Positions 2,598-63,369 of a stretch of 64,000 nucleotides of DNA are shown here, one piece after another (the stretch's first letter is position 1; each line of letters begins with the position of its first letter). The DNA is from an uncultured Eubacteriales bacterium (GTDB lineage Bacteria; Bacillota; Clostridia; Oscillospirales; QAMX01). Both the position numbers and the translations under genes were made by a program. The notes under the pieces are model-generated. The model saw nothing but the letters and a program-made list of their open reading frames with translations. It made no database searches and had not been told where the DNA came from. Location: the NCBI GenBank assembly GCA_934546935.1, contig CAKTEH010000001.1, positions 44,460-108,459 of the forward strand, given 5' to 3'.

Positions 2598-4820
2598 ATG
2601 AAAGTCCTCAATCTCATCGGCGGCGGTGATGTCGGCGGTGCCAAGACGCATATCATTTCCCTGGCGTCCCGGCTCTCGCATTATTGCCAGGTCAAGGTGG
2701 TCAGTTTCCGGGACGGGCCCTTTGTTGAAGATACACGCGCGGCAGGCATTGATGTGGAGGTTGTGCATAACCGCAGCCCGCTGCGCGACCTGCGTGCGCT
2801 GCGCCGCATTGTTGAGGTGTACGCGCCGGATGTAATTCACTGCCATGGTGCGCGTGCGAATATGATGGGCGTCATGCTGAAGCGATGGACGCATGTCCCG
2901 CTGGTGACAACGGTGCATTCGGATTACAGGCTGGATTATATGGGTCAGCCGTTAAAGCAGGCGAGCTTCGGTATGATCAACAAATACTGCCTGCGGAAGA
3001 TTGATTATTATACCTGCGTGGCGCAGCGTACCGCGCGCATGATGGCCTCGCGCGGGTTCCCGGCGCACCGTCTGTATACGATATACAATGGTATTGATTT
3101 TTCCGGGACGCATCGCAGTGTTAGCCGTCAGGAGTATCTGGCGCGATTTGGCGCAGGCTGTGAGCAGGGGGATGTTTTGTGCGGCATAGCAGCCCGGCTG
3201 ACGCCGGTTAAGGATGTCCCGACCCTGCTGCGTGCGGCGGAGCAGGCTTTGCGCCGTTGCCCGAAGCTGAAAATTGTGATTGCAGGCGACGGGGAAGACC
3301 GGCAGAGACTGGAGGCTATGGCGCAGGAGCTGGGAATCCGGAAAAATGTACTGTTCCTTGGCTGGATTGAGGATATACATGATTTTTTCTCTGCAATGGA
3401 TATCAATGTGATCTGTTCGCTGTCAGAAACCTTCCCTTATGTAATCCTGGAGGGAATCCAGGAGCGCTGTGCAGCCATCAGTTCGGATGTCGGGGGAATG
3501 GCGGAACTGATCGACGATGGCGTTAACGGCTTTATTTTCCAGCCTGGCGATTACCGGACGTTGGCGAGATGCCTGGAGACCCTGTGCAGCGACGCTCAGC
3601 TTCGGGAAGCGTTTTCCTCCCGCCTGTTTGAGAAGGCAAGCGCGCAGTTTTCTTTGGACGTTATGGCGCGCACGCAGTTTTCAATCTATACGTCAATCCT
3701 GTCTGCGCAGCAGGCGCAGTTTAAACGCGACGGGGTGCTTATCTGCGGCGCATATGGAAAGGGAAATGCCGGGGACGACGCGATTTTAAAGGCGATTGTA
3801 GCGCAGGCACATGAAATTAACCCGCATATGCCTGTATGTGTGATGTCGCGTGACCCGAAAAAAACGGCATATGAATACGGCGTCAACTCTATTTTCACAT
3901 TCAATATCGGAAAAATGCTGTGCGCAATGCGCCGCTGTGCGGTATATATAAATGGCGGGGGCAGTTTGATTCAGGATGTTACTTCCAGCCGTTCGCTGCT
4001 GTTTTATCTTTTTACGCTGTTTGCGGCGCATCATGCCGGTGCAGGCGTTATTATGTATGGCTGCGGGATCGGGCCGGTGAATTCCCCGGCAAATCGCGCA
4101 CGCGCGGCCAAAGTGCTGAATACCTGTGTAGATGTCATTACCCTGCGCGAGGATGATTCCGCGACGGAGCTTGGCGTCCTGGGGGTAACGGAGCCGGAAA
4201 TTTATCTTGCGGCGGATCCGGCCATGACCCTGGGCGCCGCGTCTGAAGCCCGGGTATCTGCAGCGATGAAAGCGCAGGGAGTGCCGGAGGGGAAACCATA
4301 TCTTGTTTTGTGCGTACGCAACTGGCTGGCGTTTGACCTTAAAGCGCCTGCCATTGCCGGCGCGGCAAATTATGCTTATCATCGCTATGGCCTGGAGACC
4401 CTTATTCTTCCTGTAGAGGTGCCGCGCGATCTGGAAGCCGGGGAAATGATCCGGATGAAGCTTGACCATAGGCCGTATATTATAGACCGGCGCTTTGATC
4501 CGGAAATTACCATCGGCATTATTACGCAAAGCCGTGCAATGCTGGCAATGCGGCTGCATGCGCTGGTCTTTGCGGTGCAGGCGGAGATCCCCTGTGCCGG
4601 CATTGTTTACGACCGTAAGGTTACCGGGTTCATGCGTTATATCCATGAAGACCTGTATGTGGATTTAAACGATGCAGATGAAAAGACGCTGTGCCTTTTT
4701 ATAGACCGGATGATGGGAATGTCGGTTAAGCAGCGCAATGAAAATGCCGCGCGCCTGCGTGAGCTGGAAAAGGTGAACCGGCGCGAACTGAAAAAACTGA
4801 TTATGGAGCATAAAAAATGA
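2598..4820 (+). CDS. Fusion protein: GT4-family glycosyltransferase (N-terminal) plus polysaccharide pyruvyl transferase, CsaB-like (C-terminal)
   Basis: 740 aa. The N-terminal half resembles GT4/GT-B (GGDVGGAKTHI..., ...LSETFPYVILEGIQERCAAISSDVGGMAELI..G.NGF). The C-terminal half starts with ICGAYGKGNAGDDAILKAIV and continues ...YINGGGSLIQD..., typical of PS_pyruv_trans/CsaB. Confidence 0.7.
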   Translation: MKVLNLIGGGDVGGAKTHIISLASRLSHYCQVKVVSFRDGPFVEDTRAAGIDVEVVHNRSPLRDLRALRRIVEVYAPDVIHCHGARANMMGVMLKRWTHVPLVTTVHSDYRLDYMGQPLKQASFGMINKYCLRKIDYYTCVAQRTARMMASRGFPAHRLYTIYNGIDFSGTHRSVSRQEYLARFGAGCEQGDVLCGIAARLTPVKDVPTLLRAAEQALRRCPKLKIVIAGDGEDRQRLEAMAQELGIRKNVLFLGWIEDIHDFFSAMDINVICSLSETFPYVILEGIQERCAAISSDVGGMAELIDDGVNGFIFQPGDYRTLARCLETLCSDAQLREAFSSRLFEKASAQFSLDVMARTQFSIYTSILSAQQAQFKRDGVLICGAYGKGNAGDDAILKAIVAQAHEINPHMPVCVMSRDPKKTAYEYGVNSIFTFNIGKMLCAMRRCAVYINGGGSLIQDVTSSRSLLFYLFTLFAAHHAGAGVIMYGCGIGPVNSPANRARAAKVLNTCVDVITLREDDSATELGVLGVTEPEIYLAADPAMTLGAASEARVSAAMKAQGVPEGKPYLVLCVRNWLAFDLKAPAIAGAANYAYHRYGLETLILPVEVPRDLEAGEMIRMKLDHRPYIIDRRFDPEITIGIITQSRAMLAMRLHALVFAVQAEIPCAGIVYDRKVTGFMRYIHEDLYVDLNDADEKTLCLFIDRMMGMSVKQRNENAARLRELEKVNRRELKKLIMEHKK

Positions 4821-5323
4821 AACAGTATTTGGAGGCAGGTGTTGTCGCTACCACCCACGGCGTACGCGGGGAAATAAAAGTAAATCCTTGGAGTGACGGC
4901 CCGGAATTTTTAAAGCGTTTTTCCCGTGTTTTTATCGATGGGCACGAGTACAGGCTTCTTTCTGCACGCGCCCATAAATCGCAGACGTTGATACAACTTG
5001 AAGGCGTCTGCGATGTAGACCAGGCGATGCGCCTGCGGGGCAAGGTGGTGTATATCTGCCGTGATGATATCAAGCTTGAGGAAGGCACGTATTTTGTACA
5101 GGATTTAATCGGCTTTCAGGTTTATGACTGGCGCACACAGGCGGTGATCGGGAAGCTGGAGGAGGTGCTCAACCTGCCTGCGGGCGATGTCTATGTTATC
5201 CGCGCTGGGGAGCGGGAATGCATGATCCCGGTTAATCCTGTTTTTGTTAAGGAAACGGATCTGGAAAACGCCGTGCTCTACGTCGAAACAATTAAAGGGA
5301 TGCTGGGCGATGACGATGCATAA
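4817..5323 (+). CDS. rimM: 16S rRNA processing protein RimM
   Basis: GVVATTHGVRGEIKV N-terminal motif plus a PRC-barrel-like C-terminus. The ATG overlaps the upstream stop (ATGA at 4817-4820). Confidence 0.85.
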   Translation: MKQYLEAGVVATTHGVRGEIKVNPWSDGPEFLKRFSRVFIDGHEYRLLSARAHKSQTLIQLEGVCDVDQAMRLRGKVVYICRDDIKLEEGTYFVQDLIGFQVYDWRTQAVIGKLEEVLNLPAGDVYVIRAGERECMIPVNPVFVKETDLENAVLYVETIKGMLGDDDA

Positions 5324-5330
5324 AGCTGGA

Positions 5331-6080
5331 ATGAAAATCGATATCATGACGCTTTTTCCCGATATGGTCCGTATGGTAATGGACACAAGCATAATCGGCC
5401 ATGCACAGGGAAACGGGCTCGTGGAAATCAATACCGTCAATATCCGCGAATATTCCCCTTCCCGCAGCCGCCGGACGGATGATTACCCCTATGGCGGCGG
5501 CCAGGGGCTGGTTATGCTTGCAGAGCCGCTGTACCGCTGCCATGCCGCGCTGTGCGAAAAGGCCGGCGGCCGGCCGCATACGGTACTGATGTCGGCGCAG
5601 GGACAGCCCTACAACCAAGAAAAAGCCCGGCAGCTGCTTGCACGCGGCCATATTATCCTGGTGTGCGGCCATTATGAAGGAATCGACGAACGTTTCATAG
5701 AGGAGTGTGTCGATGAGGAGATATCGCTGGGGGATTTTGTCATGACCGGGGGTGAGATCCCCGCCATGGCCATCGCTGACAGTATTTGCCGCATGGTGCC
5801 GGGCGTTTTAAGCGAGGAAGCGGGCTTTACGGATGAGAGCCATTGGGCCGGGCTTCTGGAATACCCGCAATATACCCGGCCCGAGGTTTGGCATGGACGT
5901 GCCGTACCGGAGATCCTGCTTTCCGGGCACCATGTCAAAATTGAGAAATGGCGCCGCATGCAGATGTTGATGCGGACATTGAAACGCCGCCCTGCGCTTT
6001 TACAGCGTGCGCAGCTCACGCCGCAGGATACGCTGACAATTCTGCGGGAACTGGAAAAGGAGGAGGCTCCGGATATATGA
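5331..6080 (+). CDS. trmD: tRNA (guanine37-N1)-methyltransferase TrmD
   Basis: ORF 5244..6080. The conserved N-terminus MKIDIMTLFPDM starts at 5331 (5310 is also in frame). Also DDYPYGGGQGLVM and VCGHYEGIDERF. Confidence 0.9.
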   Translation: MKIDIMTLFPDMVRMVMDTSIIGHAQGNGLVEINTVNIREYSPSRSRRTDDYPYGGGQGLVMLAEPLYRCHAALCEKAGGRPHTVLMSAQGQPYNQEKARQLLARGHIILVCGHYEGIDERFIEECVDEEISLGDFVMTGGEIPAMAIADSICRMVPGVLSEEAGFTDESHWAGLLEYPQYTRPEVWHGRAVPEILLSGHHVKIEKWRRMQMLMRTLKRRPALLQRAQLTPQDTLTILRELEKEEAPDI

Positions 6081-50368: not shown

Positions 50369-51574
50369 TTATGAAAGCTGCGCAATGGAAAGCCTGTGTT
50401 CGTAACGGTTGCCGTCGCTGTCAGTCAGTGTGAACATCCAGTAGATTTCTGCGCCGGAGATATAGTCGAACCGTTTATCTTCAATCTCGAAAACATCGGG
50501 GTAGTAGGTGACTGAACCGTAAGCCAAAGCGATTTCTGAATCGTAATCGTTTGCAGGAAAATCCTCTTCAAGATCGATCTGCTTGGAAAAAATTTTATCT
50601 GTATTGTAATAAAGGCTGCATTCGATCGAAAGGGGCTTGGGAGCCGCAGAAGAACTGGGAGGAGTAAAGGATACTGCAGGGGCGCCGGAAAAGGCAATGG
50701 TACGGTAGTCCCAGGCTGTGTAGCTGAATTTATCCTTATATACTTCAAAGTATGGAACAAACTGCGTGCTCAGGTCATGAAGCTGCGCGGCCAGTTCCTG
50801 CTGTGTAGAACCGCCGGGTGTTGCGTACTGGATGTAAACGTCAAGCTCCGCGCACAATGGGATTTCCGCCTGTGCGCGAAACTGTCCCTCGGAAACCGAC
50901 GCTGCAATTGTAATCGGCTCTTTAAGCGTATCGGATGCCCCTGAAGCTGGAGACAGTAGGAAGCTGAGCGTATCTTCCGGAGAAAATTCCCGCGGCGTGG
51001 CACGCAGGACAATGCGCATGGTTTGTTTTTTCAGGTCGCAGCCAGAAAGCTCCCAGTCAAAATAAAACTGGTCCGGCTCAATGAGGGTAAATTCATTCTC
51101 CAGCCGGTTGAGTATCTGTTGATAAAGGGCGGCGGTATCCGCGGGGTGTGAGGCAAGCGCGTCGATGCGCTCAGTCAGCGCATCGTATTTCTGTCCAAGC
51201 GTATGCGTCCGGACGGCAAAGAAAACGGCAAAGATTACAAGTGCCGTGCCGATAATCCCCACGCTAGCCGTCAGCAGTACCGGCGTATGTTTTGCCTGCG
51301 CCTTGTCGATGCGCTGAAGCAGTGCATCGACGCTTTGCGCGCTGAGCGGCGAGCTGTCTTCTCCGGTATTCTGTGCAGGCTGTCCGGTGATCAGTTCATC
51401 GATGCTGAGATGGAAAATTTTTGCCAGCTGCGTCAGGTTTTCCAAGGTTGGAAGCGATGTGCCGGATTCCCATTTGCCCAGCGCCTGCCGGCTGATTCCA
51501 AGCATTTCCGCCAGCGCCTCCTGAGAAAGCCCGGCTTTTTTGCGAAGCTCCTGTATACGGGAAGCAAGATCCAT
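50369..51574 (-). CDS. Membrane-tethered XRE-family regulator with large extracytoplasmic C-terminal domain
   Basis: ORF 50369..51649. The start MDLASRIQELRKKAGLSQEALAEMLGISRQALGKWESG at 51574 follows GGAGGA. A single TM (VLLTASVGIIGTALVIFAVFFAV) is followed by a ~260-aa domain with no recognisable motif. Confidence 0.7.
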   Translation of the reverse strand: MDLASRIQELRKKAGLSQEALAEMLGISRQALGKWESGTSLPTLENLTQLAKIFHLSIDELITGQPAQNTGEDSSPLSAQSVDALLQRIDKAQAKHTPVLLTASVGIIGTALVIFAVFFAVRTHTLGQKYDALTERIDALASHPADTAALYQQILNRLENEFTLIEPDQFYFDWELSGCDLKKQTMRIVLRATPREFSPEDTLSFLLSPASGASDTLKEPITIAASVSEGQFRAQAEIPLCAELDVYIQYATPGGSTQQELAAQLHDLSTQFVPYFEVYKDKFSYTAWDYRTIAFSGAPAVSFTPPSSSAAPKPLSIECSLYYNTDKIFSKQIDLEEDFPANDYDSEIALAYGSVTYYPDVFEIEDKRFDYISGAEIYWMFTLTDSDGNRYEHRLSIAQLS

Positions 51575-51709
51575 AATCTGTTTTTTCCTCCGTGTCGGTG
51601 TGTTTTGATACTTTGATTTTAACATTGTCCGCCTGCAAAATACCACCAATTGCAGCTGTCAATTCCGGCAACCATTGGTTGCCTGGGACATTTTTTTTGA
51701 TTTTCTGAT

Positions 51710-54640: not shown

Positions 54641-54765
54641 AAACGCCTCCCCGTCTTTTTTATTATAAAGGCTGGTACAGGAAAAATCAAGTGCACGGCG
54701 GAAAGGGACAGCAAAGGCGGCGGCGTGCGGTTTATAATAGGGGCGATGCCGGAGGGGAGGGAACT

Positions 54766-55626
54766 GTGACGGCCATATATATGGATGAACTGATCGCATT
54801 GAACCTGATGGTGGATTATCTGCTGCTTTCTGCTGCAGCCGCGCTGGGTTCTGTTTATTCCGGGCGGGTACGCAGGCTGGCTGCAGCTGCGCTGGGCGCC
54901 GTATACGCAGCTGCAGCGTTTGTATTTCCCGGATTGCTTTCCAGTATGCCGGTTAAGCTGCTGTGTGCCTTGGGCATGGTGCTGATAGCCTTTGGATATG
55001 GCGGTTTTCGAAATTTTCTGCGGAGGAGCTTGCTGTTTGTCCTGTGCGGAGCGGTTTTTGGCGGTTTTATTCTGCTGATGGCCGGGTTCGGGCGCGGCGG
55101 GATCCAGGTTAACGACGGGATTTTATATGCGGACATCCCGGGGTTGGTGATTGCGGCGCTGTGTACCTGTGCGTATATCCTTTTGGACGCGCTTCTGCGT
55201 TTCTCCTCCCGGATTGCAGAGGAAAAACCGGGGCGGGCCCGGGTTCGGATCCGCCACCGGAGCCGGGAAGTGGAATTTGACGCGATGCTGGATACCGGGA
55301 ACCGCCTGCGCGACCCGTCAGGCGGAGAACGCGTGCTGATCTGCGAAGCCAAGGCTGCGGCAGCGCTTTTTCCAGAGACCGCCGCAGCGGTGCTGCTGCA
55401 GGACGCCGGCGCAGCACAGGCATTGCAGTCGCTTGCAGGGCTCGGCTGTGCGCGAGGGTTCCGGCTGATCCCGTACCGCGCCGTCGGCGTAGAGCACGGC
55501 CTGCTGCTCGCGTTTAAACCGGAGCAGGTCTATATTGCCGATAAACGCCGCCGCGATATTGTCGTTGCGCTGACGCCTTCGCCGATTGATGAGGATGCAC
55601 AATGCCGTGCAGTAATGGGAATTTAA
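54766..55626 (+). CDS. spoIIGA: Sigma-E processing peptidase SpoIIGA
   Basis: ORF 54691..55626. GTG at 54766 follows GGAGGGGAGGG. The N-terminal half is multi-TM ([18 protein letters not shown]...), followed by the aspartyl-protease-type motif [11 protein letters not shown]. Confidence 0.8.
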
Positions 55627-55648: not shown

Positions 55649-56356
55649 TTGAATTTATTCAAGAAGTTTTCATCATGGATACGCCGTATGCTCCGTATGC
55701 TTGGCGTATCGCCGCCCGTATTCTATATCGGCGGCGCAGACGTCCTGCCGCAGCCGCTGACGCCGGAGGAGGAAGCCGCGCTTCTGAAAAATTGTCGGGA
55801 TGAGCAGGCAAAAAACATCCTGATTGAACGGAATTTGCGGCTTGTGGTTTACATCGCGCGAAAATTCGACAATTCTGGCGTTGGGATTGAGGATCTGATC
55901 TCCATTGGGACAATTGGACTGATCAAAGCGGTCGGTACTTATGATCCGGAAAAGAATATTAAGTTGGCCACCTATGCCTCGCGCTGCATAGAAAATGAGA
56001 TCCTGATGTTTCTGCGCAAAAGCGTCAACCGCCGCCGGGAAATTTCCATCGATGAGCCGCTCAACCGGGATGGCGACGGTAATGAGCTGCTGCTTTCGGA
56101 TATCCTCGGAACGGAGCCCGACAGTGTAATCCGGCCGTTGGAGGATGATGTGGATCGCCGCCTGCTGCGTGCCGCGCTCGCCCGGCTTGGCGAACGGGAG
56201 CATGCGATTATCTGTATGCGCTTTGGGCTGGAGGGAAAGCGGGAGATGACGCAAAAGGAAGTTGCTGAATTGATGGGAATTTCGCAGTCTTATATTTCGC
56301 GTTTGGAGAAACGCATCATATTGAAGTTGAAAAAAGATATTGTCAAATATATATGA
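55649..56356 (+). CDS. sigE: Sporulation sigma factor SigE (pro-sigma-E)
   Basis: Pro-sequence, then [68 protein letters not shown]. Confidence 0.92.
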
Positions 56357-56389: not shown

Positions 56390-56424
56390 AATTCCGGTAA
56401 GCGGGCGCTTCCGGAATTTTTTTT
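56390..56424 (+). terminator. sigE terminator
   Basis: AATTCCGG taagcgggcgctt CCGGAATT followed by TTTTTT. Confidence 0.6.
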
Positions 56425-56521
56425 GCCCCGTGAGAAAAAATTAAGGAAATTGTAATAATTCGGGTTGGAAATACGTCTGATAGTTTGAAACGGTCTGATA
56501 AACCGTTTGAGGTGAATGTAA

Positions 56522-57052
56522 ATGCTGCTTTTTGATATACCCGGTTCCGCATCGGCTCCGAACCTGGACTGGCTGATGGAGGTATACGGGACTTCGCTTC
56601 TTCGTTTATGTTATATGTATCTGAAAGATTATCATCTGGCGCAGGATGCAGTCCAGGAAACCTTTGTAAAGGTATATTTGAAATATTCCAGCTTTCGTGC
56701 AGAGTCAAGCGAAAAGACCTGGATCACGAGAATTGCCATGAATGTCTGCCGCGATATGATGCGTAAGCGTTCTTACAAAGAACGCGGGGAGGAAATTCCG
56801 GAATATCTGGCTGCGGAATCGGGCTCAGGCCCGGAAGACGAGGCATTGGAACAGGATAAAAACACCGCATTGCTTGTAGCGGTTCAGCAATTGCCCGAAA
56901 TCTACCGAGAGACGCTTCTTTTGTATTACTATGAAGATTTGAAGGCTGATCAGATTGCAAAGATTCAGCATACGGCAAGATCAACGGTAAATGTACGCTT
57001 AAAGCGCGGACGCGATATGCTGCGTGCGGCGCTTGGCGGCGAATCTTTATAA
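56522..57052 (+). CDS. ECF-type (group 4) sigma-70 family sigma factor
   Basis: 176 aa. Region 2 is AQDAVQETFVKVYLKY..F......TWITRIAMNVCRDMMRKR. Region 4 is YRETLLLYYYEDLKADQIAKIQHTARSTVNVRLKRGRDML. Confidence 0.88.
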   Translation: MLLFDIPGSASAPNLDWLMEVYGTSLLRLCYMYLKDYHLAQDAVQETFVKVYLKYSSFRAESSEKTWITRIAMNVCRDMMRKRSYKERGEEIPEYLAAESGSGPEDEALEQDKNTALLVAVQQLPEIYRETLLLYYYEDLKADQIAKIQHTARSTVNVRLKRGRDMLRAALGGESL

Positions 57053-57070
57053 AGAGGTGCCATAGTTGCA

Positions 57071-60000
57071 ATGGGTAAACTGGATAAGATAAAAAACCTG
57101 ATAGACCAAAGACTGCAGAAGATGGAGTTTACACAATACGACCGCGACTGCGTCTATGCGAAGATCAAGGCGCGCAGGAAACAAAGGCGCAGGCGCTATG
57201 CCGTCGGGTTTTCCGCGGCGGCCTTTGCCTGTGCGGCTGCAATGCTTGTAATATTGATCCTGCCTGCTTTCGGCGAGATGCAAAACGTTGGCCGCGATGC
57301 GGCCAACGGGGATTTGTCCGCTTATGATGGGGATGCCATGTTGGATGCCAGCGATGCACAGGAGAAGCTGAAGGATATTGCTTCTGCTTCCGGTGTGGAG
57401 GTTACGGCCCTGAATACATTGGGAAGCGGCTTGATTACGCGCGATTCAAGTTTCTATATTAATACGGAAAATTCGGACTTGAGCGCGCAGGAAGTTGGGG
57501 ATGCACTGCAAATCCAGCCGGAGGTCGCCTATACACTGACGATGGAGGACGAAAACCTGTGTCTGGTAACCCTTGACGAAGAACTTCCCGACGGGGAGAT
57601 TGTAACGCTTTCGCTCGATTCTGAAGACGGCGGGCAAAGCTGGGCGTTCCAGACGGAAAGTGCACTGACGGTTGTATCCACGACGCCGGCTGACCAATCC
57701 AGCGGCATGCCGCTGGATACCGGGATTGAAATCAATTTTTCCCGTATTATTGCACAGGATGCGCAGCAGTATGTGGAAATCTCCCCGAATGTTGCCGGGT
57801 CTTTCCAATACCGGGGAAAGACGCTGATTTTTGTTCCGGAAAAGGATCTGGAAAAGGATATTGTATATACGGTTCGGGTCAAGGCGGGGCTGCCTGCCCT
57901 GTCGGGCGAAACGCTTGCCGAAGATTATACCTTCAGCTTCCGTACGCCGTTTGATTATGCCGGTGGTTATTCCTATTTTTATTATACGGACAGCGTCAGC
58001 CAGACCTATACCCCTGGAGAGACGATCGCTTTTGCTGTAAATGCAACAGAGGATATCCGCAGCAGCGAACTGTCGGTGGATATCTATAAGCTCCCCGACG
58101 GGGATGCGTATATCCATTATGCGCAGCAGGCCCGCAGTATGATGCACCAGACGTTGGGCACTTCACGGGATGTACGTTTGGATTTATCTGCGGAAAATGC
58201 ATATATCCACACAAGCAGCACAATTACCCAGCTGGAGACGGACTATGGCAGTGTAGACTGCGTGATTCTTCCGGAACTGGAGGAAGGATGGTATGTGGCG
58301 CAGGTAAAAGTGCTATCCGGCTATGGTGAGCTGACCCTGCAGAAACTGATCCAGGTCAGTTCCCTTTCTGTATACTATCAAAGCATTGGCGGCGAGAACC
58401 TGCTGTGGGTGAACAGCGCGCGCAGCGGCGACGCCGTAGTGGGCGCGGGTGTCCGATACGCTTGTGGGGACGAAAATATAAGCACCCTGACGGATAAAGA
58501 CGGCCTTGCGGCGTTTACTTCTTCCGGAGCTTCGGAAACGGAATATGCGCGCGTATTCATTGAGAGCAGAGAAGGCAGCTATGCAGAGCTTTTCACGCCT
58601 TCCGCACAAAGCAAGCTGGGTCCTGCAGAGACGTACTACAGCTATCTGTATCTTGACCGTGCAGCTTATCTGCCCAGCGATACAATCCATTTCTGGGGGA
58701 TGCTGAGCGCACGGGAAAGCGGTACGGTCTTACCGGAAAGCCTTGAATTGCAAATTGCAGGTTCGGGTGCTTCTCCCCGGCACCTTACGGATATAAAGGT
58801 GTCCGCCGACGGCAGCTTTACCGGGAGCTTCTCTATTGAAAATTATATATCCGGCTATGTCATGCTTTATTTGTGCTGCGACGGTGAAACCATCCTGACA
58901 ACCTCGTTTACCGTCTGTGCGTATACCAAGCCGTCCTATGTACTGGATTTGGAGCTGGATCGCGCGTATTACCGCAGCGGGGATACGATCACCGCCACGG
59001 CAAAGGCGTCCTTCTATGACGGGACACCAGCGGCCGGCGTACAGATTTCGGTTGAGTATTACGGCGAGGTTCAGACGATGACCGCAGACAGCAGCGGTAC
59101 GGTCCGCTGTACATTCACGCCTGCTGAAGCGGTTTCCAACTGGCAGGGAAGCCATATTAATGTCAGCGCCTCCATCAGCGGCATGGAAGACGTGTATGTT
59201 TGGACTTATGCTTCCGCAAAGTATTTCCATGGCAGCGCCATGCTTACAGTGCAGCAGCGCGATGGCGCATTGAACCTGCAGGCCAATGCGATTGATTTTT
59301 CTGCGCTCGCCAAAAACCTTGATGTCTACTGTTCTGAGCCCGACCAGGTTCGCGGCGAGGCCGTTTCTTTGTCCGGACAGATAAAGATTATCAGACATTA
59401 TTATGAAAAGGTGGAAACCGGCTCCTATTATGATGAAATTGAAAAGCGCCGGGTGGATACCTATGACTATGTCTACAGGGAGGAAATTGTCCATACGGAA
59501 GCATTCACAACCGTGAACGGGCAATATACCACCAAGGCTTATAATCTTCCCGAACTCGATTACGGATGGTATACGGCGTGTATTGATTATACCGATCCAA
59601 ATGGAAATGCCATGCAGGACAGCGTCCATCTTGGTTGCGAAATCTATCCGTATGGAAGTCTGGGATATTATTTCTCTTACGAGGGGCAGGACGCATTCCT
59701 GAAGATGGATGAATCTATGGAAGTGCAGTTGTATGCACCAGACGGGAGCCGGGTTTCCAGCGGCCGGATGCTGTGTACGCTGGCGACAGATGAGGTGCTG
59801 TCCTCCAGTATCGAAAGTGATGGGCGGTATGAGATGGTGTATACCAAACAATGCATGCCGAATGTACGCCTGTATGCGGCGTATTTTGACGGCGAGCATG
59901 TTTATTCCGTACCCGCCTGCTGGTTTGAATATGACAGCTCGGAAAAGCAGCTGTTCATTGAGATCACGCCTTCGAACGATGCGGTGTCGCCGGGTGGGCG

Positions 60001-62065
60001 CATGGAGGTGGAGCTGACGGTCCGGGATGCGCAGGGCAATCCGGTGGAAAGCAATTTTGTGCTTTCTGTCGTCGATGAAGCTGCTTTTGCGGTGATGGAA
60101 CAGTATAATGTCAATCCGCTGACGGCGCTGTACCGCTCGATCTATTTGGATGAGCCTGTCCGTTATGCTTCCTATACGGATGTCCGAAAGACGAATCTTT
60201 ACGCTGAAGGCGGTGGAGAAGGCGGGACGGATGGACTGCGGGAAAATTTCAAGGATACCGCGGCTTTCCTCACCGGAAAAACAGATTCTGACGGGCATGC
60301 AGATGTGCGTTTTGAACTGCCTGAAAACCTGACTTCCTGGCGTATTACGGCTGTTGCGGTAACAGAAAATGCCGAGGGGGGGGTAGAAACAGAAAATTTC
60401 GTAACTACCCTGGACTATTTTGTCAGCCTCGTGCTGGATGATGCCTATACAGCCGGAGACGATGTTTCCCTGTCGGCACGTGTATATGGCGTGCAGGCTG
60501 GGGAACCCGTGGAATACGAGGTCTACCTGGATGGGGAATACCTGGATTCTTATTATGGGAAGAGCGGGGAGTACAGTTTCATCAAGCTCGGCGTTTTGGA
60601 TGCAGGCAGCTATGAAATTGGCGTGCGTGCAATTTGCGGCGGGCAGGAGGATGGTCTGATTCGCACGGTGGAGGTCAAGTCCAGCCGCCACAGTTTCCTG
60701 CATTATTCTTCCGGCCTCCTTTCTGAGGGTATAAAGCTCGAGGCGGACCGCTATCCTGTGACACTGTTTGCCTATGACACAGCCAATTCAACTTATATCC
60801 ATGCGTTGTCGGATCTGGTTACGGCAAATTTCTCCCGGGCTGACCGTTATTTTGGATATGCGCTTGCCTACGAAAAGCTTTCGGCGGACAGCTCCGGCGC
60901 TTTCCTTAATAAGCCTGCGAATATGAGTTGGCAGGACAGTTCCGGCGGCGTCTGCCTGATGACTTATGCCAAGCCTGACGCCTATACGACGGCAATGGCG
61001 CTGGTTACGGCAAAAGATTCCATTGATTCCGCTGCTGCGGTACGGTATTTGTATACGGTGCTTGACGACTACCATGCATCCTCAACGGAGGTCACGGCGG
61101 CTTATATGGGGTTGGCGGCAATGGGTGAGCCGGTTTTGCCGGATCTGCATGTCCTGATTACGGATTTCAATATCGGAGACATAGAGTATTATTATTTAAG
61201 CTGCGCACTTGCGCTTCTGGGCGACTGTACGCCTGCCGGCCAAAACTATGAAGCCATGTTTGGCCGCGGCTTTACGCAAAAGGGCGCGCTGGCCTATGTG
61301 GAAGCCGGGGATGCAGATGCAGATTATATTGAAACGGCGCATGCGCTCTTTTTGGGAACGCTTTTAGGCTGCACGGAAACAGAAAGCCTGGCGGCTTGGT
61401 TGTTGGATACCGGTTCGGACAGCTATCTGGCGAATTTTGAGCTGATGGCCTTTGTTTCCCACTATAAGCTGCGTTCTTCGGACTCCGCCTTTACCTGCCT
61501 GTACAACGGAAAGACTGTCCGGTTTGATTTTGCCGGCACCGGCGTGGTTGCGCTCCAGTTTAACAAAACAGAGCTGGAAAAGGCAAATTTCCATGTCAGA
61601 TCCGGTGAAGTATCTTATCTGGCCGTATACAGCGCCCCGCTTTCTTACCAGGACAACACTGCGGCGGGGGCATTCAGCGTCAGCCTGACGCCTGGGGTAA
61701 GGCAAACGGCAACCGGGCAAACTGTAAAATTTACACTTTCGCTGGAGGTTTCTGAAGGCAGCCGGGACGATATTTATATTGTGGATGTTGTCCTGCCCGC
61801 CGGTGTGCGTTATACGGGCTATCAGTATGACTGGGACGGCGGTTACAGCCTGATTTCCAATGAAAACGGCCGTTTGAGTTTTGCGGTTTCCCGAACAAAT
61901 AAATCTCAACCCGGTGTAAATGCGTCAGCCGCGTTTACAGTCAGCTTCCAGATATATGCGACGGCGGTTCTGCCCGGATCATTTGTCGTTGAAGAAGCGG
62001 TTGCCCAGGCGCCCGGCTCCAATCTTATGGCAATCGGCTCGCGTCAGAGCCTGCAGATTCAATGA
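57071..62065 (+). CDS. Membrane-anchored alpha-2-macroglobulin-like giant protein (candidate anti-sigma factor)
   Basis: 1664 aa. A short N-terminal cytoplasmic segment with RRKQRRRRY precedes one TM (AVGFSAAAFACAAAMLVILILPAF). Then comes an SbsA-type Ig-like domain (VVSTTPADQSSGMPLDTGIEINFS...YTVRVKAGLPALSGETL...FSFRT). A2M/MG hallmarks are FVLSVVDEAAFAVME and NFKDTAAFLTGKTDSDGHADVRFELPENLTSWRITAVAVT. I found no CxEQ thioester motif by eye. Confidence 0.7.
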   Translation: MGKLDKIKNLIDQRLQKMEFTQYDRDCVYAKIKARRKQRRRRYAVGFSAAAFACAAAMLVILILPAFGEMQNVGRDAANGDLSAYDGDAMLDASDAQEKLKDIASASGVEVTALNTLGSGLITRDSSFYINTENSDLSAQEVGDALQIQPEVAYTLTMEDENLCLVTLDEELPDGEIVTLSLDSEDGGQSWAFQTESALTVVSTTPADQSSGMPLDTGIEINFSRIIAQDAQQYVEISPNVAGSFQYRGKTLIFVPEKDLEKDIVYTVRVKAGLPALSGETLAEDYTFSFRTPFDYAGGYSYFYYTDSVSQTYTPGETIAFAVNATEDIRSSELSVDIYKLPDGDAYIHYAQQARSMMHQTLGTSRDVRLDLSAENAYIHTSSTITQLETDYGSVDCVILPELEEGWYVAQVKVLSGYGELTLQKLIQVSSLSVYYQSIGGENLLWVNSARSGDAVVGAGVRYACGDENISTLTDKDGLAAFTSSGASETEYARVFIESREGSYAELFTPSAQSKLGPAETYYSYLYLDRAAYLPSDTIHFWGMLSARESGTVLPESLELQIAGSGASPRHLTDIKVSADGSFTGSFSIENYISGYVMLYLCCDGETILTTSFTVCAYTKPSYVLDLELDRAYYRSGDTITATAKASFYDGTPAAGVQISVEYYGEVQTMTADSSGTVRCTFTPAEAVSNWQGSHINVSASISGMEDVYVWTYASAKYFHGSAMLTVQQRDGALNLQANAIDFSALAKNLDVYCSEPDQVRGEAVSLSGQIKIIRHYYEKVETGSYYDEIEKRRVDTYDYVYREEIVHTEAFTTVNGQYTTKAYNLPELDYGWYTACIDYTDPNGNAMQDSVHLGCEIYPYGSLGYYFSYEGQDAFLKMDESMEVQLYAPDGSRVSSGRMLCTLATDEVLSSSIESDGRYEMVYTKQCMPNVRLYAAYFDGEHVYSVPACWFEYDSSEKQLFIEITPSNDAVSPGGRMEVELTVRDAQGNPVESNFVLSVVDEAAFAVMEQYNVNPLTALYRSIYLDEPVRYASYTDVRKTNLYAEGGGEGGTDGLRENFKDTAAFLTGKTDSDGHADVRFELPENLTSWRITAVAVTENAEGGVETENFVTTLDYFVSLVLDDAYTAGDDVSLSARVYGVQAGEPVEYEVYLDGEYLDSYYGKSGEYSFIKLGVLDAGSYEIGVRAICGGQEDGLIRTVEVKSSRHSFLHYSSGLLSEGIKLEADRYPVTLFAYDTANSTYIHALSDLVTANFSRADRYFGYALAYEKLSADSSGAFLNKPANMSWQDSSGGVCLMTYAKPDAYTTAMALVTAKDSIDSAAAVRYLYTVLDDYHASSTEVTAAYMGLAAMGEPVLPDLHVLITDFNIGDIEYYYLSCALALLGDCTPAGQNYEAMFGRGFTQKGALAYVEAGDADADYIETAHALFLGTLLGCTETESLAAWLLDTGSDSYLANFELMAFVSHYKLRSSDSAFTCLYNGKTVRFDFAGTGVVALQFNKTELEKANFHVRSGEVSYLAVYSAPLSYQDNTAAGAFSVSLTPGVRQTATGQTVKFTLSLEVSEGSRDDIYIVDVVLPAGVRYTGYQYDWDGGYSLISNENGRLSFAVSRTNKSQPGVNASAAFTVSFQIYATAVLPGSFVVEEAVAQAPGSNLMAIGSRQSLQIQ

Positions 62066-63018
62066 GAAAAAGAAATAAGACTTTAAAAATCGCCGCCTGC
62101 CTGATCATTTTACTGCTCCAGGCGGCGGCGATGATCCTGTTTTCCTTCGGCGGATGCGCTGCATCTGAAAGCACTGGCGCAGAACCTGCCGGGAGTATAC
62201 CTGATGTTTCTCCTGTCCCGGAGGATTTTTCTAATCAGGAGAGTCAGGCGCACAGGTATTTGGAGTGCCTTTATGCGGACACAGCGAAAGAGGAAAGCTT
62301 TGCGCGCGCTGCCAGGCCGGATACACGATATGCACAGGTGAGTGCAGTGCTTCTTCCGCATTATGGAAATGCATTGGGTATGTGCTGCGACCTGTTGTCA
62401 AGCATTGAGCGGGAAATCGATTTGCTTGTCCTCATCGGGCCAAATCATGCCGGAGCCGGGGATGCGGTCCAGATTTCCGGCGCGGACTGGTATTGGAGTA
62501 CCGGGCAGATGCCCGGGGATCCGGAAGCTGCGCAGGCGCTTGCCGATGCTGCGGGGACTTTGACGGATACGCAGATTGCGCAGGACTGGTCGGTCCAAAC
62601 TCTAATCCCCTATATGCGCCGGTATTTCCCGGAAGCGCGGTTGGTTACGGTATTGCTCTCCCGTGACGCAGATGTACAGTCTTTGACGCTGCTTGCAGAG
62701 GCGGTTCAAACGCTTTCTTCTCAGCAGGAGCTGCTGCTTGCAGGCTCCGTAGATTTTTCCCATTATCTGGATCCGGCGTCGGCAAAGGAAAATGATGAAA
62801 AAACCTGCGCATGGATTGAAACGGGGGATATCCCGGCCATTTTAAGGCTGGATAATGGATATCTGGATTCACCGGAAACAGTCGCAGCTGTTTTGTCTTA
62901 TACGCAGGCTTTGGGGCAGACGCTGAGGCTGTGCGATGGGCTTTTTGAACAGTTTTGGGAAAATGGACAGGAAAAAGCCGGCTCCTACTACACCTTTGCG
63001 GCATGGCAGGAGCCATAA
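62062..63018 (+). CDS. Exported Memo-like / AmmeMemoRadiSam-system-protein-B-like protein
   Basis: 318 aa. Signal/lipobox-like N-terminus (LLLQAAAMILFSFGGC). Memo-family metal-site motifs VLLPHYGNA, LIGPNHAG and VDFSHYL. The ATG overlaps the upstream stop (ATGA at 62062-62065). Confidence 0.6.
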   Translation: MRKRNKTLKIAACLIILLLQAAAMILFSFGGCAASESTGAEPAGSIPDVSPVPEDFSNQESQAHRYLECLYADTAKEESFARAARPDTRYAQVSAVLLPHYGNALGMCCDLLSSIEREIDLLVLIGPNHAGAGDAVQISGADWYWSTGQMPGDPEAAQALADAAGTLTDTQIAQDWSVQTLIPYMRRYFPEARLVTVLLSRDADVQSLTLLAEAVQTLSSQQELLLAGSVDFSHYLDPASAKENDEKTCAWIETGDIPAILRLDNGYLDSPETVAAVLSYTQALGQTLRLCDGLFEQFWENGQEKAGSYYTFAAWQEP

Positions 63019-63078: not shown

Positions 63079-63369
63079 TTACAGGAGGATGCGCCGCCGG
63101 CGCTCTTTTGGCTTTTTGCGCGGTACTGGCGCTACCTCAAAGCGGACGAGGATGATATCCCCGCCGATTTTTTCGATCTGGCACCAGGGTACGACAAATT
63201 CTTCACCATGTGAGAACAGGTTGGAAAAGCTCCATGGTCCCGGCACGACAATGGCAAGCAGACGTCCGGTGTTGATATCAAGCTCAACGTCGTTGACGTA
63301 TCCCATACGCTCGCCGGTGCAGACATTGATAACTTCTTTGCATTGCAGATCTGCGATTCTTGTATTCAT
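63079..63369 (-). CDS. YlmC/YmxH-family sporulation protein (PRC-barrel)
   Basis: 96 aa. RIADLQCKEVINVCTGERMGYVNDVELDINTGRLLAIVVPG is the typical family N-terminus. Confidence 0.85.
   Translation of the reverse strand: MNTRIADLQCKEVINVCTGERMGYVNDVELDINTGRLLAIVVPGPWSFSNLFSHGEEFVVPWCQIEKIGGDIILVRFEVAPVPRKKPKERRRRILL

Follow-up and report, generated by a model that had tools for sequence, protein, structure and literature searches.

The locus described here raises the question of what keeps its extracytoplasmic function (ECF) σ factor inactive and what signal sets it free. ECF σ/anti-σ pairs are a major signalling system of bacteria, and for most of their groups the input signal is unknown. The locus lies on contig CAKTEH010000001.1 of an uncultured Eubacteriales bacterium (assembly GCA_934546935.1), in a stretch of 64,000 nucleotides (nt) which was analysed as a whole and is referred to as the window. 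It comprises genes for an ECF σ factor, for a large membrane protein related to α2-macroglobulins (A2M) and for an exported protein of the Memo family. A preliminary description of the sequence had suggested that the A2M-like protein is itself the anti-σ factor and that σ release is triggered by an external protease. According to the sequence comparisons reported below, the A2M-like protein very probably is the anti-σ factor; for a protease as the signal, which is supported indirectly, the balance is about even.

Inspection of the sequence located the three open reading frames (ORFs) where the preliminary description had placed them, all on the plus strand (Table 1). The gap between the σ gene and the A2M-like gene measures 18 nt rather than the 19 nt given before, and contains a GAGGTG ribosome-binding site 11 nt 5′ of the ATG of the large gene. 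The junction between the A2M-like and the Memo-like gene is the 4-nt ATGA overlap described earlier. No further ORF is present between or beside the σ gene and the large gene. Pfam searches matched σ domains in the first product and, above the curated cut-offs, A2M-type and Memo domains in the second and third. The three genes probably constitute a self-contained, autoregulated ECF σ/anti-σ operon.

The product of the first gene is an ECF (group 4) σ70 factor. It consists of regions 2 and 4 only (Pfam Sigma70_r2, residues 19-84, E = 9.8e-15; r4_2, residues 116-166, E = 7.9e-13) and scores 90.9 bits with the NCBIfam model sigma70-ECF (TIGR02937; cut-off 42.9). With the nearest NCBIfam subfamilies (PRK09415 'sigma C' and PRK11924.1-5) it stays under their cut-offs, and the nearest solved structure is that of Bacillus subtilis SigW (5wuq, E = 1.7e-18). 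The intergenic region 5′ of the σ gene harbours the sequence TGTAAT-N17-CGTCT, which we take to resemble Bacillus ECF σ promoters (TGnAAC-N16-17-CGTC). Its GTAA and CGTCT elements are invariant across five orthologous intergenic regions, the mean identity of the remaining columns being 56%. The -10 sequence CGTCTAA is also found upstream of the paralogous σ genes and of the serpin-type σ genes introduced below, the upstream regions of the latter reading TGTCAC/T-N17-CCGTCTAA. From this pattern we infer that TGTAAT-N17-CGTCT would act as the operon's own promoter, and that the operon would thus be autoregulated. When the window was searched for further regulon sites with the pattern TGTAAY-N16-18-CGTC, one other match was obtained (51212-51239, minus strand). 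It lies within the gene for a 426-amino-acid (aa) HTH_3-type membrane protein (50369-51649, minus strand) and is probably due to chance; two or more matches occurred in 3 of 100 shuffled sequences. As this sole other match is intragenic, the visible regulon is the operon itself.

The part of the A2M-like protein that might bind σ is its N-terminus. The short cytoplasmic segment, the RRKQRRRRY stretch and the single transmembrane (TM) helix noted previously are all present in the translation, and a hydropathy scan placed the first TM segment of the orthologues from L001 to L004 at residues 45-51. In the window clade, identity amounts to 0.36 in the N-terminal ~36 aa, 0.40 in the ectodomain and 0.17 in the tether that connects the TM helix to the ectodomain (gap fraction of the tether, 0.19). 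Conservation of the N-terminus is thus comparable to that of the folded ectodomain, and that of the tether is far lower. Among the conserved residues of the N-terminus are L15 and T21, with the I/L-K-x-I-V-D and MTE-x-QK positions around them. Searches against Pfam, NCBIfam and PDB sequences assigned the N-terminal module to no known family; a match to CU044_5270 (E = 0.017-0.025) was far below the cut-off and was disregarded. Neither Pfam nor inspection of the sequence revealed a zf-HC2 domain or an HxxxCxxC zinc motif in the ~34 cytoplasmic residues.

Genomes were scanned with one genome per species. At least 587 relatives of the large protein were found, and the best 80 loci were analysed; most belong to Bacillota and some to Chloroflexota, Patescibacteria and Actinomycetota. 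Clustering of all flanking ORFs yielded two recurrent families, the Memo-like proteins (52 loci) and the ECF σ factors (17 loci). No other gene family occurred in more than seven of the 80 loci, the neighbours not having been screened specifically for PBP1c or Mag proteins. The Memo-like gene directly follows the A2M-like gene and shares its orientation; the median distance between the two is -3 nt. Direct phmmer searches detected it in 53 of the 80 loci, one more than clustering, on account of L003 in which it overlaps the A2M-like gene by 189 nt; in nine of the remaining loci the downstream sequence is too short to judge its presence. An ECF σ gene lies immediately upstream in 16 loci. Of the three-gene adjacency put forward in the preliminary description, the A2M-like/Memo-like pair is therefore widely retained among relatives, whereas the σ gene is confined to a subset. 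On the evidence of these gene neighbourhoods, the conserved core unit is the A2M-like protein together with the exported Memo-like protein, and the σ factor is a lineage-specific addition.

The distribution of the σ gene follows that of the N-terminal extension. Of 75 assessable loci, in which σ was scored when encoded co-directionally within 100 nt upstream and an extension when the first TM segment begins after 40 or more residues, σ was present in 16 of 24 with an extension and in none of 51 without (Fisher p = 8.6e-11, a value that overstates the evidence because the loci are phylogenetically related). The 51 extension-less proteins start with a signal anchor or a lipoprotein signal. The σ-linked N-termini comprise the following types: (i) a short type, KLxxLKxIvD...MTE, in the window clade; (ii) a long type, ELxxLEKE...APLRxEFQExL; (iii) a Patescibacteria (CPR) type; (iv) the canonical zinc-binding anti-σ motif in L073, where Pfam zf-HC2 was matched with E = 9e-7 (29.3 bits; cut-off 22.2); in P0068 the match is weak. 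Judged by these sequences, σ is linked to at least three or four different, unrelated N-terminal types with which it was recruited.

Further evidence came from proteins that share the N-terminus of the window protein and carry a different ectodomain. A 43-position profile of the window-type N-terminus gave 22 matches among 1.84e9 representative proteins, including A2M-like proteins of ~1640-1690 aa and fragments. Two of the matches, P0268 and P0270 (E = 3e-6 and 7.5e-6), consist of the module and a TM helix followed by a full Serpin domain (E = 6e-87 and 1e-83), with reactive-centre-loop hinges that, by eye, look inhibitory. Their genes each overlap an ECF σ gene by 4 nt, and the two σ factors are 48% and 44% identical to that of the window. 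These serpin-type loci (L088-L091) thus resemble the window locus in the N-terminal module, the TM helix, the related σ, the -10 sequence and a lipoprotein gene downstream; they differ from it in that the ectodomain comprises ~380 aa and the lipoprotein is unrelated to Memo, no Memo-like gene being present in these operons. The lipoproteins of the two operons are 39% identical to each other and belong to no Pfam family. Serpin-ectodomain partners of ECF σ factors appear to be an undescribed anti-σ architecture. A scan of metagenome contigs with the serpin pair gave no confirmed locus.

Five sampled paralogues of the window σ (42-47% identity) extend this picture. In all five cases the N-terminal pattern recurs, in register, at the start of the protein encoded next. 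The C-terminal parts of these proteins are unrelated: four have small ectodomains and one a PadR-like domain. A hidden Markov model of the N-terminus gave 6.8-14.8 bits with four of these partners, while none of ~7,340 unrelated ORFs exceeded 7.4 bits. Together, these comparisons single out the ~34-aa segment as the module that is the cognate partner of the σ subgroup to which the window σ belongs, with an ectodomain that seems to behave as an exchangeable sensor. The PadR-like fusion is encoded in L084, where the gene after that of the paralogous σ (47% identity) codes for a protein of 140 aa (4495-4917) that has the N-terminal pattern and the PadR-like domain and lacks a TM helix. It may be a soluble variant of the anti-σ module. 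A 261-aa membrane protein is encoded next to it (4904-5689).

The same data bear on the possibility that the A2M-like protein is mere cargo, that is, a surface trap which is transcribed by σ and whose N-terminus is a plain signal anchor, σ being controlled otherwise or having no anti-σ factor. Most relatives are indeed plain signal-anchored proteins or lipoproteins without a σ gene, and the cytoplasmic segment of the window protein, at ~34 aa, is very short and without a match among the described anti-σ families. A cargo role is nevertheless improbable in view of the absence of any other ORF between or beside the σ gene and the large gene, the restriction of σ to N-terminally extended forms, the zf-HC2 domain at the same position in L073, and the conservation of the module in partners of related σ factors with unrelated ectodomains. 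A plain anchor is also disfavoured because it needs no conserved cytoplasmic sequence of 34 aa. The earlier suggestion that the A2M-like protein functions as the anti-σ factor thus gains support from the link between σ and N-terminal extension, from L073, from the module shared with the serpin proteins and from the pattern common to all five paralogue partners.

Regarding the nature of the sensor, the large protein is a genuine member of the A2M superfamily that lacks the thioester. An SbsA-type Ig-like domain and hallmarks of macroglobulin (MG) domains had been recognised in the preliminary description, and Pfam located Big_5 (residues 196-292, E = 2.6e-14), MG2 (524-591), MG4 (632-685), A2M_BRD (877-1007, E = 2.7e-11) and A2M (1070-1141, E = 1.3e-11) above the curated cut-offs; a bMG3 match was weak. 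The peptides quoted there (RRKQRRRRY, VVDEAAFAVME, NFKDTAAF...ENLTSWRITAVAVT and SSGGVCLMTYAKPDAYTTAMALV) all occur in the translation. With a profile built from 34 homologues, the best solved structure was Escherichia coli ECAM/YfhM (5a42/4ziq, E = 1.7e-30), the alignment spanning the MG array, the A2M domain, the C-terminal half of TED and the last MG domain. An AlphaFold2 model of residues 860-1664 (mean predicted local distance difference test score, pLDDT, 87.6) shows β-sandwich domains, a 24-residue disordered loop (1031-1054), a helical TED-like domain (1237-1464; pLDDT ~90) flanked by β domains, and C-terminal β domains. A Foldseek search with this model returned ECAM 5a42 as the top match (E = 2e-34); CD109, A2ML1 and Salmonella A2M came next. 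The Pfam TED models gave no match on the large protein. A reading as a Big_5/SbsA-type adhesin was dismissed, as Big_5 is also found on ordinary YfaS-type A2Ms and the fold of the entire C-terminal half is that of A2M/TED.

A search of the full protein confirmed that it contains no CxEQ motif. The motif is also missing from the homologues P0001-P0086, save for an off-position CGEQ at residue 1194 of P0002, and is present, mostly as GCxEQ, in the distant YfaS/ECAM-type matches (P0087 and beyond). The CGEQ of P0002 does not fall in the helical TED-like region; the corresponding segment of the window protein reads CGGQ and was modelled as a β-sandwich. This CGEQ is regarded as a chance occurrence. 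No Cys is conserved anywhere in the family, some members of which have a single Cys in total. The assignment of SSGGVCLMTYAKPDAYTTAMALV as the equivalent of CxEQ in the preliminary description is probably wrong, since, going by family consensus and model, it looks like a later TED hairpin ('YQ..GG..L.Y....LTA'). The thioester position probably falls ~50 residues upstream of SSGGVCLMTYAKPDAYTTAMALV, near 'FAYDTANSTY'.

The disordered loop aligns with a Gly-rich segment of ECAM (~897-925) just N-terminal to the A2M-domain match, a segment which we take to be the ECAM bait region. The first half of the loop is variable and an AEGGGEG motif in it is conserved. This motif (AEGGGEG/AEGGGGG; aa 1044-1050, window 60200-60220) is kept family-wide from Bacillota to Chloroflexota and may serve in specific recognition or as a hinge. 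As a separate observation, precomputed annotations place a C-terminal HINT/polymorphic-toxin-type domain (PF07591 and related) on several of the A2M-like proteins (P0036, P0054, P0055, P0064, P0069, P0070, P0073, P0076, P0080 and P0081). Three of these (P0069, P0076 and P0081) come from a CPR source, and several HINT-bearing members have long N-terminal cytoplasmic segments.

The third protein was correctly described as a Memo/AmmeMemoRadiSam-B-like protein with an export signal. It matches Pfam Memo (PF01875, E = 1.8e-11) and NCBIfam AmmeMemoSam_B (TIGR04336, 73.9 bits; cut-off 26) and has a signal-type N-terminus. Its AlphaFold2 model (pLDDT 87.7) was matched by Foldseek to MEMO1 (7kq8, E = 5e-14, TM-score 0.67/0.72). 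In the alignment H100, H129, D231 and H234 are invariant, so the metal site is probably retained. At Glu272 (DSPET, window 62875-62877), a position which we equate with Cys244 of MEMO1, the exported group has Glu and cytoplasmic AmmeMemoRadiSam-B-type members have Cys (ISMCG); the resulting His/His/Asp/His/Glu set recalls LigB-type dioxygenases with their 2-His-1-carboxylate site. The partner proteins from the 52 loci all possess a hydrophobic N-terminus of the signal type. Many of them have a lipobox-like Cys, and in the window clade this Cys is conserved. Tight coupling to the A2M-like gene suggests, speculatively, that the Memo-like protein associates with the ectodomain in a complex or brings about its maturation; by way of analogy, MagB stabilises the A2M protein MagD (PMC5764988). 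An unusual partner was found in L076 (8391-10253), where the Memo-like part is contained in a 620-aa protein with an extra N-terminal region. This locus is labelled as an uncultured gammaproteobacterial metagenome-assembled genome, and its N-terminal and σ types are CPR-like.

From these results the following model is proposed, each of whose elements (σ binding, protease trigger, proteolytic cascade and regulon) we infer. At rest, the first ~34 residues would sequester σ at the membrane from the cytoplasmic side of the TM helix. The thioester-less ectodomain of ~1600 aa would be the sensor and at once the main product of the regulon, and the Memo-like metallo-lipoprotein, as its ancestral partner, would be co-made by translational coupling. 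The most likely trigger would be an extracellular protease that cuts either in the loop at the bait position (aa 1031-1054) or in the tether (aa 68-120), which is variable, whereupon a conformational change or shedding would allow membrane proteases to finish degradation of the anti-σ factor. Freed σ would then transcribe its own operon from TGTAAT-N17-CGTCT and thereby bring more trap and partner to the cell surface. The anti-σ factors RsiW, RsiV and RseA are known to undergo regulated intramembrane proteolysis. A protease is favoured as the trigger because two unrelated protease-reactive folds carry the same module, because a disordered loop occupies the bait position, and because the tether is exposed and variable. 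Taken as a whole, this three-gene explanation is one towards which we cautiously lean. A broader generalisation, tentative and somewhat harder to credit, is that a subgroup of ECF σ factors in Clostridia is controlled by anti-σ factors with suicide-substrate protease inhibitors (A2M-like or serpin) as sensors, such that cleavage of the decoy would lead to more inhibitor.

The A2M-like protein might also be an anti-σ factor that responds by conformational release to a signal other than a foreign protease, such as damage to the wall or envelope, the metal or redox state of the Memo-like site, or a ligand. RsiV, for example, releases its σ factor on binding of lysozyme. Such a signal would fit the retention of the A2M-like/Memo-like pair irrespective of σ, which implies that the Memo-like protein is integral to ectodomain function. 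It would likewise fit the invariant metal-site residues and confidently MEMO1-like fold of this protein and the conserved AEGGGEG motif, an unusual feature in a promiscuous bait. In addition, the type I A2M of bacteria has a cell-wall enzyme, PBP1c, as its partner (PMC5764988). We consider a non-protease signal unlikely, given that the same module is joined, with a related σ, to a serpin in operons that have no Memo-like gene. No biochemical activity of serpins other than reaction with proteases is known. Furthermore, absence of the thioester does not preclude trapping, as the thioester-less type II A2M MagD traps protease non-covalently after bait cleavage (PMC5764988).

Apart from the brevity of the cytoplasmic segment and the relatedness of the loci, several points weigh against the proposed protease-sensing anti-σ system. 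Eight loci have a long N-terminal segment and no detectable σ gene, although some of these may represent over-extended ORF calls or low-complexity tails. The scores of the module on the paralogue partners are individually weak (3.5-14.8 bits). As most family members have no σ gene, the primary job of the ectodomain is another one than signalling. The bait-position loop is half-conserved (AEGGGEG), unlike classical A2M baits which are hypervariable throughout. A cut at ~1040 would leave ~970 residues of ectodomain, too long for a site-2 protease, so that the stub would have to be trimmed further or release would have to take a conformational route. Finally, the view is one of 64 kb of the genome, and a separate anti-σ factor may be encoded elsewhere.

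The genomic position of the operon suggested a further alternative, namely that it is a sporulation device acting in the mother cell or the intermembrane space, for instance in checking or shielding against sporulation-signalling proteases, and not in defence. The order SpoIIGA - sigE - ECF σ - A2M-like - Memo-like is kept in L081, L082 and L083, down to 38% identity of the A2M-like protein, and in L001 (40% identity) a second σ-like ORF lies directly upstream of the ECF σ gene. The position after spoIIGA-sigE, which is taken by the operon here, is usually occupied by sigG in Bacillus and Clostridium, and neither sigG nor another second sporulation-type σ gene was found in the 64-kb window. 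Against these observations stand a terminator-like hairpin and the separate ECF-type promoter between sigE and the ECF σ gene, the unrelated neighbourhoods of other σ-linked and σ-less members, which have no other conserved neighbour, and the occurrence of members in Patescibacteria and Chloroflexota, lineages not known to sporulate. The synteny may also reflect shared ancestry within one family of Clostridia. A sporulation role is hence very improbable. The hairpin with its T-run is kept in the closest orthologous loci L081 and L082, and was not listed by a simple terminator scan. Evidence for the terminator 3′ of the Memo-like gene is weak, as scan matches occur at chance frequency in that region. 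In the window, L081 and L083, the next gene after the Memo-like one is a convergent PRC-barrel gene; the sequence of L082 stops short of that point. An Rfam scan of 55-64 kb gave no match.

Table 1. Coordinates of the three-gene locus, its protein segments and flanking features in the window, and of the serpin-type loci (positions of the latter refer to the respective locus).
Feature	Position	Strand	Size or remark	Basis
ECF σ gene	56522-57052	+	176 aa	Translated ORF, Pfam and NCBIfam
A2M-like large ORF	57071-62065	+	1664 aa, single-pass membrane protein	
Cytoplasmic N-terminal module, aa 1-34	57071-57172	+	Proposed σ-binding anti-σ segment	
Poly-basic stop-transfer, aa 35-42 (RRKQRRRR), and single TM helix, aa 44-67	57173-57271	+		Own translation
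Variable, gap-rich extracytoplasmic tether, aa 68-120	57272-57430	+	Lowest conservation in the protein	
N-terminal macroglobulin-type β-sandwich array	57431-60160	+		Pfam, family profile versus ECAM
Disordered loop at bait position, aa 1031-1054	60161-60232	+	SYTDVRKTNLYAEGGGEGGTDGLR	AlphaFold2 pLDDT <50, ECAM alignment
A2M domain, CUB-like β domain, TED-like domain, C-terminal β-sandwich domains	60233-62065	+		AlphaFold2, Foldseek
Memo-like gene	62062-63018	+	318 aa	
Memo-like protein			Signal peptide with lipobox-like FGGC (Cys32), disordered linker 29-60, Memo fold 61-318	
Candidate ECF-type promoter	-35 TGTAAT 56451-56456, N17, -10 CGTCT 56474-56478	+	Ends 43 nt before σ start codon	
spoIIGA-like (Peptidase_U4) gene	54691-55626		Upstream	Pfam on called genes in orthologous loci
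sigE-like gene	55649-56356		Upstream	Pfam on called genes in orthologous loci
Intrinsic-terminator-like hairpin and T-run	56394-56424	+	Ends upstream sigE unit	Assigned by eye
PRC-barrel YlmC/YmxH-like gene	63079-63369	opposite	Downstream	Pfam in orthologous loci
Terminator-like hairpins	63091-63112	+	Likely operon end, 3′ of Memo-like gene	Simple consensus scan
σ gene, L088-L090	4477-5004			
Serpin protein, L088	5001-6608			
σ gene, L091	4474-5004			
Serpin protein, L091	5001-6512			

The proposed system shares with RsiW/SigW and RsiV/SigV of B. subtilis and with RseA/RpoE of E. coli the combination of an ECF σ factor with a co-transcribed single-pass protein whose N-terminus is cytoplasmic, and it has a candidate for an autoregulatory ECF-type promoter; the release mechanism suggested above is borrowed from them. 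It differs from them by its ~34-aa cytoplasmic segment without HxxxCxxC and by its ~1600-aa A2M-fold ectodomain. As in the type II A2Ms (Pseudomonas aeruginosa MagD/E. coli YfaS), a protein that is membrane-associated on the extracytoplasmic side combines MG domains with a loop at the bait position and a TED-like domain without CxEQ. MagD is, however, anchored through MagB and not by a TM helix of its own, and the type II proteins belong to a mag operon of six genes (MagA, B, C, E, F), whereas the sole conserved partners here are the Memo-like lipoprotein and, in some lineages, an ECF σ factor. The sequence relation to YfaS-type proteins is distant (E = 1e-32 or weaker, with 6-30% of the query covered in most matches and up to 61%). 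The family described here is found in monoderm and other non-proteobacterial lineages (Bacillota, Chloroflexota, Patescibacteria, Actinomycetota), whereas a 2026 review lists bacterial A2Ms solely from Gram-negatives (PMC12939704).

Type I A2Ms (E. coli ECAM/YfhM, Salmonella Sa-A2M) provide the best profile and fold match, with the same order of domains and an aligned Gly-rich loop; unlike ECAM, the A2M-like protein has neither thioester nor lipoprotein anchor, and no PBP1c gene emerged next to it from the clustering of neighbours, which were not screened specifically for PBP1c. The Memo-like protein has the family membership, fold and His/His/Asp/His residues of MEMO1/AmmeMemoRadiSam-B and differs in being exported with a lipobox-like Cys and in having no adjacent AMMECR1 or radical-SAM gene. 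A full-text literature search for an anti-σ factor with a macroglobulin/A2M or serpin domain, or for Memo/AmmeMemoRadiSam together with A2M, retrieved no relevant paper, and the main text of the ECF reclassification paper (PMC7826278) mentions none of A2M, MG2, Big_5 and Memo. The σ/anti-σ logic as such is already known; new are the sensor with a protease-inhibitor fold, the short N-terminal module and the A2M-like/Memo-like pairing in monoderms.

Because the sensor belongs to a fold known to react with proteases and the same module is joined to a serpin, extracellular proteolysis is a directly testable input for this σ factor. If the model is true, the locus would represent a bacterial 'bait-and-alarm' circuit built on an unrecognised and widespread A2M-like/Memo-like surface module of monoderms. 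Bacterial A2Ms would then extend past the Gram-negative periplasm and be present on the cell surface in Bacillota, Chloroflexota and candidate-phyla bacteria. The exported Memo-like metalloprotein would be a new, obligate-looking partner of A2Ms and would provide an extracytoplasmic context for the Memo family, which is poorly understood. Gut Clostridia are surrounded by proteases of host and microbes, and a circuit of this kind could be relevant to their colonisation.

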